This document shows positions 47,516 through 56,227 of a stretch of 64,000 nt of DNA, piece by piece (position 1 is the first letter of the stretch; each line of letters starts with the position of its first letter). This DNA comes from an uncultured delta proteobacterium (lineage in GTDB: Bacteria > Desulfobacterota > Desulfobacteria > Desulfobacterales > UBA11574), in the NCBI GenBank assembly GCA_963731025.1, contig CAVSVL010000016.1:60354-124353 (forward strand), given 5' to 3'. Made by a program: the position numbers and the translations under genes. The notes below the pieces were generated by a model that saw only the letters and a program-made list of their open reading frames with translations, was not told the DNA's origin and made no database searches.

Positions 47516-48772
47516 CTACAAATTCACGATTTCACCGTCTTCCACAAGCCTTACATTTGGAAAGTGATCCTTGTATTTATCTGGATGAAAGCTGTGAATG
47601 GGAATCACCATTTCTGGAGCTATAGCGTCGACCAGCTTTTTCAAATCTTTAAGTTTTGCGTGGCCGCTGGTGTGCAAGTATTCGTATCGAACCCCTTTGT
47701 CTTTAAAATATGATCTCAGCTTTCGCAAAGGTTTGCTCCGCTCAAAATACCCGGGCCACAGGGAATAGACCCAGGCGGCTCCTTTTAAATCCAGGTGTCT
47801 TTTAATATCCCAAAGGAATCCAGCCCGAATCAACATCACCGCCTGTTCTTCAATCTCATTGATCCGGGCCCACCTGATCCCCTCTTTTCTGTGTTTTTCG
47901 AGGATGTTTTTTAAACCGATTTTTTCAAATCTTTGCCCGAGAAAAAAAGGATAGCACACCCGGATCTTTCGCCAAGAGGCCTGGGGCAGTTTTGCAAAGG
48001 TTTTTAACCTTTGGAGGATTTCGGCAGTGTAAAAATCGATAATCAATGTTCGGTCTGTGCGCGTTGCGGCCTTAAATATGGTGACGATCCGGTCGATGTT
48101 CTGGCTGGAGGTGGTTACCAGAACTATGCCGGGCGTTCCTTCAATTACCCGGACAAATTCGTTTTCAAGTTCGGTTTCGGTTATTGTCAGTTCATCGGAT
48201 CGCTCGCCGACAAGTGTTCCCTCCATCAACAGAGCATTTACTTTAGGCGGATTTTGTATCAAGCGATCAAGAAGCTTTGCCTTTCTGCCGTGTCCGCGAA
48301 AATCCCCGGTGTAAAACAAACTTTTACTTCCGGTTGAAATAAGAAAGCCGTAGGCATCAAAAGCGGAGTGATCCATGAGGTAAGGCGTTACTAAAAATGC
48401 TCCAGCCTGAAATTCTCTCCAGGATTTGAAGAATTTTAGTTCTAAAGGTTGTGCCTTCTCAGGGCTTATTTGGCCGGTTATTGCCATAAGCTCAGCAGAG
48501 GCCTTTCCGCAATACACCGGGACTCCTTGTGGCAGCATGCCGGCCAGGCCATAGTGGTCAAGGTGAGCATGGGACAAGATAACAGCATCAATCTTTTTAT
48601 TGCCGCCCCTGAGTTCCATAAAGAGTGGCTGTGGAAGAGTTGTTTTCGGATCGTCTCTGAAATCAAAATCCAAAGGGAGTCCTATGTCCAGTAGAATGTT
48701 GGTATCTTTGTAGGTCAATTCTACGCAAGAACCTCCCACTTCCTTAGCACCTCTATGAATTTTAAAGTACAT
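47516..48772 (-). CDS. MBL-fold metallo-hydrolase, beta-CASP-like nuclease
   Basis: VILSHAHLDHYG, YTGDFRG, late HTSGH, VIPIH. 418 aa. Confidence 0.75.
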   Translation of the reverse strand: MYFKIHRGAKEVGGSCVELTYKDTNILLDIGLPLDFDFRDDPKTTLPQPLFMELRGGNKKIDAVILSHAHLDHYGLAGMLPQGVPVYCGKASAELMAITGQISPEKAQPLELKFFKSWREFQAGAFLVTPYLMDHSAFDAYGFLISTGSKSLFYTGDFRGHGRKAKLLDRLIQNPPKVNALLMEGTLVGERSDELTITETELENEFVRVIEGTPGIVLVTTSSQNIDRIVTIFKAATRTDRTLIIDFYTAEILQRLKTFAKLPQASWRKIRVCYPFFLGQRFEKIGLKNILEKHRKEGIRWARINEIEEQAVMLIRAGFLWDIKRHLDLKGAAWVYSLWPGYFERSKPLRKLRSYFKDKGVRYEYLHTSGHAKLKDLKKLVDAIAPEMVIPIHSFHPDKYKDHFPNVRLVEDGEIVNL

Positions 48773-48777
48773 GATAT

Positions 48778-49587
48778 TTAAATTTGTATTTCATTAATTT
48801 GAATATCTCCATCCAATACTATTCTCTCATCCGCCTCATTTTGAATAACTTTTTCGCTTGCGTAGTCATAAGTAAAGAATTCAACAGAGATTTTTATTTC
48901 TGTATTAATCTTAGATACAAGCCTTTTAATATTTGGATAATTATCTATTTTTTTCAGTGTCTCGCCTGATGGAGAGGTTCCATCTGTTAATATCGCTGGT
49001 TGAAAATAAAATTCTTTTTCATTTTCGAGATGAAAGTCACCAACAAATTTATCTAATGAATTATTGATGAGTTTATAATAAGTGTAAACTTCAAGTAGTG
49101 CCCGTAATAGCGTTTCTTTATTTTTTCCATTAATTTTCAATTCAATTAGTTTTAATGAGCGGTCCTTCTGGGCAACCAAATCAATCTCTCCAAATTTGTC
49201 CGATTGTTTTTCTTTCAAAGGAACTTGGTAATCAATAATTTTTCCAAAGCAGTAATCTGTATCAGAGTTGAATAAAGCAGTTGCCAGTAGTTTTTCACTA
49301 AATTTTAGATAATCAAACCGTTTTAGCCTAGCGTTTACGTTTGGAATGCCATTATGACAAGCGTTGAAACTTCTTGTCCTACGAATAGAAACGTCTTTTC
49401 CTAATTGCATTAACTGATGATAATTTTTAACTAATTCCTTTGCAATAACTTCAGAATATGGTTTTCTGGAATCTTTAGTCCTGCCCTTATAATTTAGGAA
49501 ATTTTCTTGATAAATAAAAAGAGGATTGGTCTCTAATGCCTTTTTAATCATTTCCTTTATGTTATTTTCTGAGTAAGTTTGAGACAT
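48778..49587 (-). CDS. hypothetical protein with PD-(D/E)xK-like nuclease motif
   Basis: AAGGAG RBS. FGEIDLVAQKDRSLKLIELKI (D...ExK). Visibly AT-rich compared with its neighbours. Confidence 0.5.
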   Translation of the reverse strand: MSQTYSENNIKEMIKKALETNPLFIYQENFLNYKGRTKDSRKPYSEVIAKELVKNYHQLMQLGKDVSIRRTRSFNACHNGIPNVNARLKRFDYLKFSEKLLATALFNSDTDYCFGKIIDYQVPLKEKQSDKFGEIDLVAQKDRSLKLIELKINGKNKETLLRALLEVYTYYKLINNSLDKFVGDFHLENEKEFYFQPAILTDGTSPSGETLKKIDNYPNIKRLVSKINTEIKISVEFFTYDYASEKVIQNEADERIVLDGDIQINEIQI

Positions 49588-49615
49588 TGATTTTCTCCTT
49601 ATCAAATTTCGTTTT

Positions 49616-50587
49616 TCATTTGCGGAATGTATTTCTCCGGTGCCAGTGAAGGTTATCCTGGGCCGGCCAGAAGCTTTCTTGTTCCGGCGTAAAGATGGGT
49701 CGATCGGTCAGTGTGAGAATGTGCCCGGGATAGTTTTGCTCCACCATTATTCGCTTTGAAACCAAAACTTCATATTTTTTGCTAACACTCATGAGCCCTT
49801 TGTCAAAAGACCAGTGGCAGAGCTTACAAAGCGCCATTCCATTGGTGGGCCGGTCGTCAAAGCTGTCTTTCCATGGTTTGACGTGAGCGGCATCGACAAT
49901 GGTGTGGCCCTCGGGCGTGAGCATGCGGATTCCGCACAGGGCACACCGGTGGCTGTAAAGGGTAATAATCGCTTTACGAAATCCCTGGTCCCGGACCTTT
50001 TTCCTCTGTTCAGACTCTTCTTTATCCGGCTCGAAAGAGGCTTTTGTCTCTGCCACTTTCAGCAGTTCTATGCTGTACTGAAAAGCCGCATAGTTTACCA
50101 TCCCTTGTCCTACCAATTTTGATTGAATTTCAGGAGCAAAATACGTTTTTATAAGTACTGCCCTCAACTGCTCCCTGGTTTCCGGGTTGCACAACAACTG
50201 AAACAGTTCATCATCCATTCGGGCACCGGCACAAACCTCACGCAGTTTGGTCATGGAGCTGAAATCGATATTGATTTGATTTTCATATCCCTGGATTTGG
50301 CACCAGATGCCAGAATCCATCGGTCTTCAGTCTGGGAAACGGATAGGCCATGCTCGTTTTTGAACCAAGCGGCATGACACTGTTCCAGTATGTATTGAAT
50401 GTATCAAAAGTTCAAAGGAAGGTTCGATGAAGTTTTGGGTAATCAGTCCCTGGGCGATCAGATCCATAATGGACAGCAGCAGAAAGGGTTTGTGAGGTGC
50501 TTGATAGGTGGTGAGTGCAGACCAGCGTTTACGGTTTTTATCAGTCCGCAGGCGGGAAAAGCTTTTGAGGTATTGTTCAAGAGACAT
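49616..50587 (-). pseudogene. HNH (HNH_2-type) endonuclease with N-terminal modification-reader-like domain, interrupted by one in-frame TGA (50329-50327)
   Basis: Track ORFs 50327-50587 and 49616-50320 share a frame: ...WPIRFPD-TGA-RPMDSGIWCQ... HNH motif HRCALCG...AAHVKPW...NGMALCKLCHWSFDKG. Confidence 0.65.
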
Positions 50588-50682
50588 TCAATCTCCCGGC
50601 TCTTAAAATGCTTGCTGTATTTTATATTTCTTTAATCAAGGATCAAGGTTTTACCACAAGTCACTTCGTTTTTACCTGCAGG

Positions 50683-50744
50683 AAACTTATAAAGTAATGT
50701 ACGTCCCCCATAGTTCCTAAAACTTAATGTTAAGACCGTCCCGC
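50683..50744 (+). repeat. two REP family-1 elements
   Basis: AAACTTATAAAGTAATGTACGTCCCCC ... AAAACTTAATGTTAAGACCGTCCCGC. Confidence 0.7.
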
Positions 50745-50771: not shown

Positions 50772-51668
50772 TCAATCCTTTGCTTTTGGCTCAACATCAC
50801 GGCATTTTCGTTCCAGTTGATGAATAATTCTTGAGATCATTTGGTCAGATAAATTTATGCCGCCTTTTGTTTTGGCGATGGATCGAAAGTTCTTGGGATT
50901 AATAACAGGAATGCCGCCGGAAGCAACTCTTTTTACAAACCATCCCGGCAGGGCAACAACCGGCCGAACCCTGATGGCCTCACCCACTGCTTTTTGCAAC
51001 CATTTTGACAGCCATTCCGCCTGCCTTTTGGCCTGTTCGATGGATTTAACGTCCATACCATTCGAAAATTGAAGACGCGTGCCGTCGTAATTAACCTTAG
51101 CATCTGCCTTTCGATCTTTTGAAGTTGGTTTTGATCGCGCTTTTGTTTCAACAGCAAATACACCCGAAGCGCCGACGACAATGTGATCGATATTGAACTT
51201 CCCTGCGGGAAAATCATGGTAGACACGGTATCCTTCCAGCATGAGCTGATTGAGCTCCTGGCCAACGGCAATTTCACCCTCGTAACCCAGCTGATAAGAC
51301 CGTCGCAGGTTCAATGATTTGACTAAATTAAAAAGAAAATAGGCGATAGAACCTATTCCAGCAATGATGTAAAAGGCAGTTGTAAATGTTGAAAGTTTTG
51401 AATTGCCGAAATGTAATAAAGATATATAAGTGGCATAAAAGAATATCGGCAATGTGATGAGTAAAAGAAGATTTTCAGTTAACCTATCATTGATTTCCAT
51501 AATTTTTCTGTTAAGGGATTCTCCCGGGCTTCTTAAAAAATTGTCGGTAAATGGTGATCGATATCTTTTTATCTGGCGATATTTCCGCAGCAGGTAGAGC
51601 ACTGAAGCAAAGATCGCATAGATTCCAAAAATCAGGATTACTGGGAAATATTTGAGTATCATGTTCAA
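50772..51668 (-). CDS. NERD-domain (nuclease-related) membrane protein
   Basis: 3 N-terminal TM helices. GYEGEIAVGQELNQL..GYRVYHDF...IDHIVVGASGVFAVETK. Confidence 0.75.
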   Translation of the reverse strand: MNMILKYFPVILIFGIYAIFASVLYLLRKYRQIKRYRSPFTDNFLRSPGESLNRKIMEINDRLTENLLLLITLPIFFYATYISLLHFGNSKLSTFTTAFYIIAGIGSIAYFLFNLVKSLNLRRSYQLGYEGEIAVGQELNQLMLEGYRVYHDFPAGKFNIDHIVVGASGVFAVETKARSKPTSKDRKADAKVNYDGTRLQFSNGMDVKSIEQAKRQAEWLSKWLQKAVGEAIRVRPVVALPGWFVKRVASGGIPVINPKNFRSIAKTKGGINLSDQMISRIIHQLERKCRDVEPKAKD

Positions 51669-51691
51669 GGCCTTCTCCTTCTTATATTTTT

Positions 51692-51787
51692 GTGAGGGAC
51701 TTGATAGCTAGTGAATGCAGACCAGCGTTTACGGTTTTTATCAGTTCGCAGGGTGGAAAAGCTTTTGAGGTATTGGGCAAGAGACAT
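51692..51787 (-). pseudogene. 5' fragment (~27 codons) of the HNH 'reader' nuclease gene, fused upstream of the NERD gene
   Basis: MSLAQYLKSFSTLRTDKNRKRWSAFTSYQVPHK, then a stop 2 nt before the NERD ATG. The upstream 5'-UTR homology extends to ~51860. Confidence 0.7.
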
Positions 51788-51913
51788 TCAATCTCCCAGA
51801 TCTTAAAATGCTTGCTGTATTTTATCTTTATTCTTGTCGAGCCGAAGCTTTCAGCAAAGGCTGATAATCAAGGATGAAGGTTTGAACCCAATCACTTCGT
51901 TTTTATCTCAAGA

Positions 51914-51939
51914 CAACTTATAAACTTATGTACGTCCCC
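51914..51939 (+). repeat. REP family 1
   Basis: CAACTTATAAACTTATGTACGTCCCC. Confidence 0.7.
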
Positions 51940-51967
51940 TATTTTCACCATTATATGTGAGTGCTGA

Positions 51968-54866: not shown

Positions 54867-55800
54867 TTACAGCTCGCAATGTATTTCATCATGACAGACA
54901 GTACAAACGGTAAGGAGATTTTCTTCTATGTTTTCACCGCCCTCTACATGGGGTTTAATATGATGGAGTTCAAGGTGCCGAGGATCTGACCGGTTCCATT
55001 CCTTATGTGACCATTCACATTTTTGGCACTGGTAAATCCCTTCTCAGAACTTCTCGTTTGACTCTATCAGGAATATGCCGATCATGTTCAGGGCTTTGTC
55101 GGTCTGCTTCTAAAAGATAAACTCCGACATTCAAATCGGGTCTGCCTGTATTCTTGGTAACAATCGGCCATCCATATTCGGTCCTGAGTTCTCGCACTCT
55201 GCGTGCCCATTCAGTTCTATCTTTTGCAACATAACGAAGTTCCTCTCCGGTGATTATTTTCCCAACGTTTGATCGCAAAAATATTTGAGTATTTTATCTC
55301 TTACCGAAATATTGTCTCTGCGAATTTCATTTGCAATGCGCCATCTGAAGGCCGCCTCTCGATCTTGTTCGGTGCTGACCAAAATATAATCAGCCGGACC
55401 CATCGAAGATACGTCTACATTGTCTATCGGAAATTCATCTTCCTCGGCCATTTGTTTTGCGGTAACTCCGCTGACATATTGACCAGCCAAACTGCACTTT
55501 GAGTTCACGGACTCTACGAGCATATTCCTGAATGCCTGAAACAACTAAAAGTTCATCTCCGTTAATAATTGTGTAAGGATATTTTCTAAAATAGAATAAG
55601 ATTCGATCTCTAGCACTCCGGGTTGTTTCTTTAGGGATTAAAGACTTTCCCAAATTCCTTAAGTGATGATAACAAGGAATTAGTGCCAACACCTTTTCTC
55701 TGAGATCTTCGGATTGAAGCTCTTTCTCAAAATTGGTTATTAGGTTTACCAGCTCTTTTCTAATAGCTTCTGAATCTTCTAAGTAATTATTTTCATGCAT
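54867..55800 (-). pseudogene. HNH restriction endonuclease gene with three frameshifts (R partner of dcm/vsr)
   Basis: Pieces in alternating frames join into one protein with two GxELxxVSGI/RYVAKD...ARRVRELxxxxGW modules and a terminal YQCQKCEW...HLELHHIKP...LLTVCTVCHDEIH HNH motif. Confidence 0.65.
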
Positions 55801-55825
55801 TTTAAAATTGACCCTTTTCAAAGTT

Positions 55826-56227
55826 TTACAAAAACATGTCAAGTTTTTCGCTGAGTTTCTCGATATCTTTTACCTCACACCCCCAAACAATAATAGGCTC
55901 CCAGCCCTTTTCCTTTATTTTATGAATATTCATAGAATCGCGTTCGATGGTTTTGTCTAATTTGGTATTCCAAAAATCGACATTGGTTGTGGGTCTTTTG
56001 GACCGAAGACAACCTTTGTGGCCGTGCCAAAAACAACCGTGGACAAAAATGACCTTTTTATGCTTTGGAAGAACAATATCAGGGTTGCCCGGCAAATCTT
56101 TTCGATGAAGACGGAAACGATATCCCATACTATGGAGTAGCGAACGAACGACTCGCTCGGGCTTTGTATCCTTGCCCTTAACTTTTGCCATTATCCGGCT
56201 TCTTTTTTCTTTGCTGAATACATCCAT
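55826..56227 (-). CDS. vsr: very-short-patch repair endonuclease
   Basis: SRIMAKVKGKDTKPE...LPGNPDIVLPKHKKVIFVHGCFWHGH. Confidence 0.9.
   Translation of the reverse strand: MDVFSKEKRSRIMAKVKGKDTKPERVVRSLLHSMGYRFRLHRKDLPGNPDIVLPKHKKVIFVHGCFWHGHKGCLRSKRPTTNVDFWNTKLDKTIERDSMNIHKIKEKGWEPIIVWGCEVKDIEKLSEKLDMFL

Follow-up and report, generated by a model that had tools for sequence, protein, structure and literature searches.

A PD-(D/E)xK-like gene and an RNase J-like beta-CASP gene form a conserved pair beside a disrupted SBD-HNH gene in an uncultured delta proteobacterium

We examined three adjacent minus-strand genes in a 64,000-nucleotide stretch of DNA from an uncultured delta proteobacterium, hereafter called the window. 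They encode an HNH nuclease, a middle protein that resembles PD-(D/E)xK nucleases and a protein of the metallo-beta-lactamase (MBL) fold (Table 1). A sequence-only reading had described the three genes with gaps of 28 nt and 5 nt, and the open reading frames (ORFs) and the spacers (49588-49615 between HNH and middle gene, 48773-48777 between middle and MBL gene) lie where it had placed them. That reading had also taken the three genes to be one system, a claim that our comparisons did not support, as the HNH gene stands beside the other two only in close relatives. The conserved unit is a two-gene core of a PD-(D/E)xK-like gene and a beta-CASP MBL gene, found across many phyla and on plasmids. 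The middle ORF, listed as 48778-49605, actually starts at 49587, giving a length that matches all homologues, and the HNH ORF is broken into 50327-50587 and 49616-50320. The middle gene had been judged AT-rich by eye. Its AT-richness is real: the computed GC contents are 0.304 (middle gene), 0.455 (MBL gene), 0.477 (HNH gene) and 0.441 (whole window). A scan for promoters and terminators gave counts not above those in shuffled sequence.

Table 1. Features of the window (positions in nucleotides from the first letter of the window)
Feature	Position	Strand	Remarks
MBL gene	47516-48772	-	418 aa
Middle gene	48778-49587	-	269 aa
HNH gene, disrupted	49616-50587	-	repaired product 323 aa
Out-of-frame stretch of HNH gene	50292-50406	-	bounded by the two indels; contains TGA 50327-50329
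Direct repeat, copy 1 (~255 nt)	50489-50711		HNH promoter region and first ~32 HNH codons
Direct repeat, copy 2	51689-51942		84-90% identical to copy 1; 5'-end remnant of second SBD-HNH gene
NERD-domain protein	50772-51668	-	PF08378, 2e-18; neighbour, outside the module
IS110-family transposase	45575-46861	+	~650 nt from MBL 3' end
Y1 (IS200-like) transposase with DnaA_C helix-turn-helix	40879-41871	-	
GHKL (HATPase_c_3) protein	39757-40866	-	

The MBL protein matches the Pfam families Lactamase_B_2 (1.2e-15), Lactamase_B and RMMBL. Against NCBIfam, it scored 81.6 bits with the RNase J model TIGR00649 (cut-off 400), the match covering profile positions 8-249 only, and 66 bits with NF047419 (cut-off 820); a match to aCPSF1 was also below threshold. 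Across 30 homologues H68, H70, H73, H135, D157, D227, H367/H371 and H393 are invariant and D72 is nearly so, and motif tests found both the MBL (HxHxDH, H, D) and the beta-CASP A, B and C motifs. When we searched an AlphaFold2 model of the protein (pLDDT 84.9) with Foldseek, the best match was 2az4 (E. faecalis EF2904, function not assigned; TM score 0.72), RNase J structures scored 0.66-0.74, and E-values for both ranged from 1e-23 to 1e-19. The MBL protein is, by its motifs and modelled fold, a predicted intact RNase J-like beta-CASP nuclease and a new branch of a known fold family. Pfam, the motifs and Foldseek thus agree with the sequence-only reading, which had called it MBL-fold and beta-CASP-like.

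Compared with RNase J and EF2904-like nucleases (2az4, 7wnt, 3bk1), the MBL protein has the same MBL and beta-CASP fold, with TM scores of 0.66-0.74, and carries all of the metal-binding and beta-CASP motifs. It differs in lacking the C-terminal dimerisation domain of RNase J, which is ~550 aa long, and in falling well below the RNase J family cut-offs, so it is not RNase J proper. Unlike RNase J, its gene is not a universal single-copy gene; it is patchy, borne on islands and plasmids, and accompanied by a variable PD-(D/E)xK partner. Homologues exceed 5,279 proteins at E<1e-10, with at least 581 loci among GTDB species representatives. They are patchily distributed over Thermodesulfobacteriota, Bacteroidota, Omnitrophota, Patescibacteria, Binatia, Pseudomonadota, Chloroflexota and others. 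Of the pair, the MBL protein can be detected more widely.

The middle protein has no family match in Pfam, PADLOC or PHROGs, and the empty Pfam search accords with the earlier failure to recognise a family. The same reading had proposed a PD-(D/E)xK core from the segment GEIDLV...ELK. This segment gives a weak match to YraN (NF009152, aa 135-180, E=1.6e-5, 24.9 bits, cut-off 111), and a phmmer search of the PDB returned 3fov at E=1.5. Both D136 and E149-x-K151 of the proposed core are invariant among 41 homologues, as are E98, D119, E166 and Y170. In an AlphaFold2 model (pLDDT 92.7), an alpha-beta-beta-beta-alpha-beta core bears the invariant residues, with those of the catalytic signature on helix 98-107, strands 134-141 and 144-151, and helix 160-184. 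Foldseek searches of this model against PDB and BFVD found nothing under E=1e-3 (best E 3.8e-3, top TM score at most 0.31); the weak matches were mostly PD-(D/E)xK folds, among them HincII, SfsA, YraN 3fov and Can2. The middle protein looks like a PD-(D/E)xK protein of an uncharacterised family and is a predicted nuclease. With other PD-(D/E)xK proteins (YraN/UPF0102 3fov, SfsA, HincII; Pfam REase-ARP/PDDEXK_13) it shares the E...D...ExK signature and the core common to these folds. It shows no significant sequence or structure match to any curated family, and differs from these families in a helical N-terminal region of ~95 residues that is its own and in a beta extension at the C-terminus.

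A word-indexed search found 61 homologues of the middle protein; in an exhaustive profile search the family came to 1,600 cluster representatives (50% identity) at E<=1e-3, 1,107 of them at <=1e-10. The family was absent from a scan of IMG/VR viral contigs and from PHROGs. Two proteins, P0221 and P0254, carry a middle-family domain fused, in either order, to REase-ARP (PF22558)/PDDEXK_13; our literature search found no paper describing the REase-ARP (PF22558) family.

How often the two genes occur together was surveyed from both sides. From the MBL side, we took 80 MBL loci of GTDB species representatives in segments of ~13 kb, which contain 813 ORFs of >=150 aa. A profile was iterated from the middle-family alignment using ORFs that flank the MBL gene, and downstream partners were never in training. 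This profile matched 43 of the 813 ORFs, all adjoining the MBL gene or within ~2 genes of it, and none elsewhere in these segments. Of the 43 matches, 38 share the strand of the MBL gene at a distance below 200 nt (25 upstream, 13 downstream), and BLAST clustering showed that upstream and downstream partners share clusters. Among loci with >=1 kb on both flanks of the MBL gene, 31 of 52 are positive by the profile, 35 when BLAST-linked clusters are included and 40 when a cluster linked by hhalign alone is added.

From the side of the middle protein, 10 distinct loci were compared and 7 have the MBL gene adjoining, even where the middle protein is only 33-39% identical. Middle and MBL genes stand together in L003/L004 (53% identical to the middle protein of the window), in L009 (39%, overlapping genes), in L100-103 (33%, 4-nt gap) and in L106 (36%). 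In L006 (48%) the middle gene diverges, on the other strand, from a 153-aa gene and the MBL gene, and in L005 (54%) and L010 (38%) it occurs without an MBL gene. The synteny that the sequence-only reading had proposed to look for around the 269-aa protein was therefore found for the MBL neighbour, across distant lineages; the HNH neighbour was found in close relatives only. Gene order in the pair is either way, and the genes overlap by 3 to 16 nt in many loci. P0278 is a natural single-chain fusion of 658 aa with a full MBL and a full middle-family domain: residues 1-395 match the MBL protein of the window (31% identity, 9e-51) and residues 426-645 its middle protein (33% identity, 3e-25). L076 is fusion-like, with a weak middle-family match (E=0.006), one of the 43 in the survey from the MBL side. 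The pair was also found on two plasmids, a mobilizable one of Rhizobium and a conjugative one of Ochrobactrum.

We asked whether a third gene belongs to the pair. Extras differ by lineage (153-aa and GIY-YIG proteins, 201-208-aa proteins, an ADP-ribosylglycohydrolase, a GGACT fusion) and none is general, so a conserved third gene was rejected. The window, L011, L012 and L018 each have an SF1 helicase close to the pair, but only 2 of the 80 GTDB loci do, and the helicase was rejected as a general third component; its association is clade-specific. UvrD or NERD-UvrD genes stand just upstream in the window, L011 and L012 too. A phage origin of the pair was likewise set aside. The middle family is absent from the viral contigs scanned, and the phage collection holds just two distant MBL matches (24% identity), both from Enterococcus, where the upstream ORF has no recognisable relation to the middle family.

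Several loci carry variant arrangements. L014-L017, L006 and L021 have a lineage-specific form of the module that combines a 277-aa partner, the 153-aa protein, the MBL protein and, last, a GIY-YIG protein of 226-229 aa. The latter matches PADLOC PD-T4-3 at 3e-10, and the 153-aa protein has no match. L039:3851-6364 encodes an MBL protein fused to a GGACT/AIG2-like gamma-glutamyl cyclotransferase domain, and in L101-L103 an ADP-ribosylglycohydrolase gene comes after the pair. At L010:3229-5282 the middle-family member (38%) is followed by a 408-aa PDDEXK_4 protein in place of the MBL protein, next to WYL, SNF2 helicase and DUF4391 genes.

Comparison of close relatives at the DNA level showed how the partners are exchanged. 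L002 (middle protein 84% identical) has the whole trio in common with the window, in a different island. In L001 (83%), which has the HNH and middle genes and no MBL gene, homology extends right up to the MBL start codon and stops there. L019 has the MBL gene and the last 38 nt of the HNH gene in common with the window and a different middle gene of 388 aa, and L011 and L018 share the MBL gene only. These patterns indicate that the middle gene behaves as a replaceable cassette, and DNA homology ends exactly at the gene borders of that cassette. MBL proteins that are 78-80% identical stand beside unrelated-looking partners: one of 269 aa from the family in the window, a divergent one of 269 aa and one of 388 aa. 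In L018, from a Desulfobacteraceae metagenome-assembled genome with an MBL protein 80% identical, a RecD-like SF1 helicase (656 aa) lies directly upstream in the partner position; at L018:10-5721 a UvrD-like helicase precedes it. The GC content of the partner gene is below that of the MBL gene in most loci examined (the window, L001/L002, L011, L012, L006).

The surroundings of the pair vary by locus. Neighbours include type IIG and type II restriction-modification genes, Mrr, GmrSD, SLFN-like ATPases, Dsr1, pAgo, MADS components, toxin-antitoxin genes and transposases, together with many ordinary genes. In the window itself, the sequence-only reading had seen a nuclease-rich island; its dcm, vsr, NERD and UvrD-PD-(D/E)xK genes were recovered, and the HNH gene that it had placed by dcm and vsr had no Pfam match.

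The third gene of the trio belongs to an already known kind. Its repaired product matches the HNH_2 family (PF13391, E=8.5e-11, 42 bits, cut-off 21), in line with the HNH_2-type motif reported earlier, and NF045808, 'phosphorothioated DNA-binding restriction endonuclease', at E=4e-42. With NF045808 it scores 144.2 bits, under the 180-bit cut-off, so that it is a relative and not a member by that model. Residues 1-157 align to the sulfur-binding domain (SBD) SBDHga1 (PDB 8h0l, E=2e-15), and the N-terminal ScoMcrA-type modification reader that had been suspected is matched by both this domain and NF045808. By our own motif matching, H32-K33 and Y82-P83 correspond to H116/R117 and Y164/P165 of ScoMcrA, which are its sulfur-pocket residues (PMC6224610). 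We therefore assign the gene, on its sequence matches, to the SBD-HNH type IV restriction endonucleases, a known kind in which the SBD recognises phosphorothioate-modified DNA and the HNH domain cuts it. Like other SBD-HNH enzymes (ScoMcrA, SprMcrA, EcoWI; SBDHga 8h0l), the product has an N-terminal sulfur-binding domain and a C-terminal HNH_2 domain; in size it is a two-domain protein like the EcoWI/SprMcrA type and, unlike ScoMcrA, it has no SRA domain. The repaired protein is 91.6% identical to the intact L001 orthologue across all 323 aa.

Unlike intact SBD-HNH enzymes, the gene in the window is disrupted. The sequence-only reading had described a gene interrupted by one TGA in need of repair. 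DNA alignment with the intact genes of L001 and L002 instead showed that one nucleotide is missing between 50406 and 50405 (CTTTT-GAT) and that one has been inserted at ~50292 (AATCC[A]GGG), 113 nt away, and the TGA arises from the frameshift between these two indels. By three-frame translation, a run of ~38 codons midway through the N-terminal domain reads correctly in a different frame only (FNTYWNSVMPLGSKTSMAYPFPRLKTDGFWHLVPNPG). The sulfur-pocket residues Y82-P83 fall within this stretch and are removed from the reading frame. The HNH gene in this genome is either a pseudogene or carries assembly errors. We think it rather unlikely, though a serious contender, that the inactivation is an assembly artefact and that the gene is intact in the organism. 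Such an artefact would fit the position of the deletion in a T-run, the compensation of the indels within 113 nt, which preserves the downstream frame, and the 91.6% identity to the intact L001 protein with no further decay. It fits less well with the insertion, which lies outside any homopolymer, or with the neighbouring genes, which are free of such errors; moreover, gene decay does occur in this island, as seen from a second SBD-HNH remnant and from a fragmented gene at 55015-55842.

The second SBD-HNH remnant lies in a direct repeat. In copy 2, the promoter region of another SBD-HNH gene is preserved together with its first ~32 codons (MSLAQYLKSFSTLRTDKNRKRWSAFTSYQVPHK). This copy stops at ...CCTCACAAA, and the ribosome-binding site and start of NERD follow directly. 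The body of this second SBD-HNH gene appears to have given way to NERD, and the join between repeat copy 2 and the start of the NERD gene points to cassette replacement within the island.

We next compared the pair with known defence systems. PADLOC v2.0 and NCBIfam r20 gave no named system at family level, either for the proteins of the window or for partners from other loci, and neither did scans of these proteins with Pfam and PHROGs; the sequence-only reading, too, knew of no named system made of this trio. The only matches of the MBL protein to named systems were negligible: LmuA at E=0.008 with 13.3 bits, 6A-MBL at 15.6/220 bits and Cas14 at 35/800 bits. 6A-MBL was rejected as the identity of the pair because it is a different, ubiquitin-related Pseudomonas system. 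A search of the literature on MBL, beta-CASP and RNase J proteins, restriction endonucleases and defence found no description of the pair. Like Gabija, Hachiman, Lamassu-type effectors, 6A-MBL and the Cas14 of type VII CRISPR, the pair is a short operon in variable islands that joins a conserved enzyme to a diversifying partner, and some of these systems also use an MBL/beta-CASP effector. Unlike them, it has no ATPase, helicase, SMC, ubiquitin-like or CRISPR component. What is new here is the unnamed pair, a nuclease-based module of variable islands; the HNH kind and the beta-CASP fold are known.

RNase J-type enzymes are 5'-3' exo/endonucleases. From the gene and protein comparisons we infer, with confidence evenly balanced, that the pair may encode an unnamed two-nuclease complex acting in defence against foreign nucleic acid. 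The two proteins would form one complex, in which the variable PD-(D/E)xK subunit would recognise the target and make the first cut and the beta-CASP subunit would degrade from the new end in the fashion of RNase J. More tentatively, and somewhat short of even confidence, the pair may be a widespread anti-phage/anti-plasmid system present in several hundred species or more, in many phyla and on plasmids, with specificity changed by swapping of the AT-rich PD-(D/E)xK cassette. Such an exchange next to a conserved beta-CASP effector would be analogous to the shuffling of specificity subunits in type I restriction.

Several observations weigh against this picture. Because no Foldseek match of the middle protein was significant, the PD-(D/E)xK assignment rests on motif, topology and the sub-threshold YraN match. 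About one quarter of the well-flanked MBL loci have no recognisable partner. Homology among the partner clusters comes from an iterated profile, built on a small database, and from modest hhalign matches (E=1.4e-4, 2.4e-3), and between clusters the PD-(D/E)xK core alone aligns. The closest structural relatives of the MBL protein are ribonucleases, so the substrate may be RNA and the scheme of cutting and then resecting DNA may fail. Defence genes near the pair are sprinkled among many unrelated genes, in a raw listing without a genome-wide control. Finally, the HNH-X-MBL order is seen with two different X genes (window/L002 and L019), so a functional link to HNH within this clade is possible.

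Two other functions for the pair appear improbable, each to a like degree. In the first, the pair would be a toxin-antitoxin or abortive-infection module, one nuclease being a growth-arresting toxin that the other protein restrains until infection. Tight coupling with overlapping genes (by 3 to 16 nt in many loci), presence on plasmids, a patchy distribution and an RNase J-like fold suited to killing cells by RNA degradation would all suit such a module. Yet both catalytic sites are complete, which is unusual in an antitoxin, natural fusions favour cooperation over antagonism, and proteins of 269 and 418 aa exceed typical type II toxin-antitoxin sizes.

In the second, the pair would serve outside defence, in repair, recombination, RNA processing, or the establishment or counter-defence of mobile elements. 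The relatives RNase J and CPSF73 are housekeeping RNA enzymes, and some contexts agree with such a role: L009 lies amid YqaJ, RadC and ArdC-like genes, a MobF relaxase is ~3 kb from the L098 pair, a D5-type primase is near L006, and ordinary metabolic genes are among many neighbours. This is countered by the patchy distribution in widely varied contexts and by the swapping of partners with anomalous GC between near-identical MBLs. Type IV, restriction-modification, GmrSD and Mrr genes are frequent neighbours, and no relatives of the middle protein turned up in phage collections. A two-nuclease defence complex is the reading we prefer over both.

Least probable, by a small step, is that HNH, middle and MBL proteins constitute one three-gene defence system, in which the SBD-HNH enzyme would read modified DNA and the other nucleases would finish it. 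The genes do share one strand with gaps of 28 nt and 5 nt, L002 keeps the full trio in a different island, L001 retains HNH and middle gene, and in L019 the 3' end of HNH is followed by the 388-aa middle gene and then the MBL gene, so that an HNH-X-MBL frame outlives a swap of the cassette. When the repaired HNH protein was searched against all fetched loci by tblastn, however, it was found beside pair members only in L001, L002 and L019 besides the window. In all four cases the MBLs or middle proteins are >=76% identical (DNA or protein), and the adjacency is explained by descent from one common island segment. No distant locus with the pair has HNH: SBD-HNH stands beside the pair in 0 of ~90 more distant loci, with just two remote HNH-domain matches lying 2-3 kb off (L046, L065). 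Even L011 and L018, with MBLs 79-80% identical, have no HNH gene. SBD-HNH enzymes act alone as single proteins (PMC6224610, PMC7461809), and in the window HNH is broken while both partner genes are intact. The 5' end of the second SBD-HNH gene, 1.2 kb away, was overwritten by NERD, indicating that these genes are shuffled independently. The trio is thus largely not conserved as neighbours elsewhere, the outcome that the sequence-only reading had itself said would speak against it. Since HNH adjacency is confined to a close clade, HNH-X-MBL is a local arrangement of that clade. We put about even weight on the locus being two separate units that are neighbours by chance, the conserved pair of middle and MBL genes and an independent HNH enzyme.

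If the pair is a defence system, it would add a common and compact module of ~2.1 kb, with two genes and no ATPase. The RNase J-type beta-CASP fold would then gain a use beyond RNA housekeeping and type VII CRISPR, and replacement of the partner beside a conserved effector provides a testable model for the diversification of recognition. Annotation gains from the pairing a hint of function for a family that has no Pfam model (~1,600 clusters at 50% identity), and the pairing also covers thousands of genes that now carry the label 'MBL fold metallo-hydrolase' or 'ribonuclease J'. There is nothing unusual in the HNH gene, which is another SBD-HNH type IV enzyme, decayed here.

Other features of the window concern the island. 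The IS110, Y1 transposase and GHKL genes may mark its edge. Between the UvrD-nuclease gene and vsr/dcm, the minus strand at 55015-55842 holds three overlapping ORF fragments (87, 96 and 135 aa), which gave no Pfam match and contain segments similar to one another. These fragments are probably a decayed restriction-enzyme partner of the dcm methylase.

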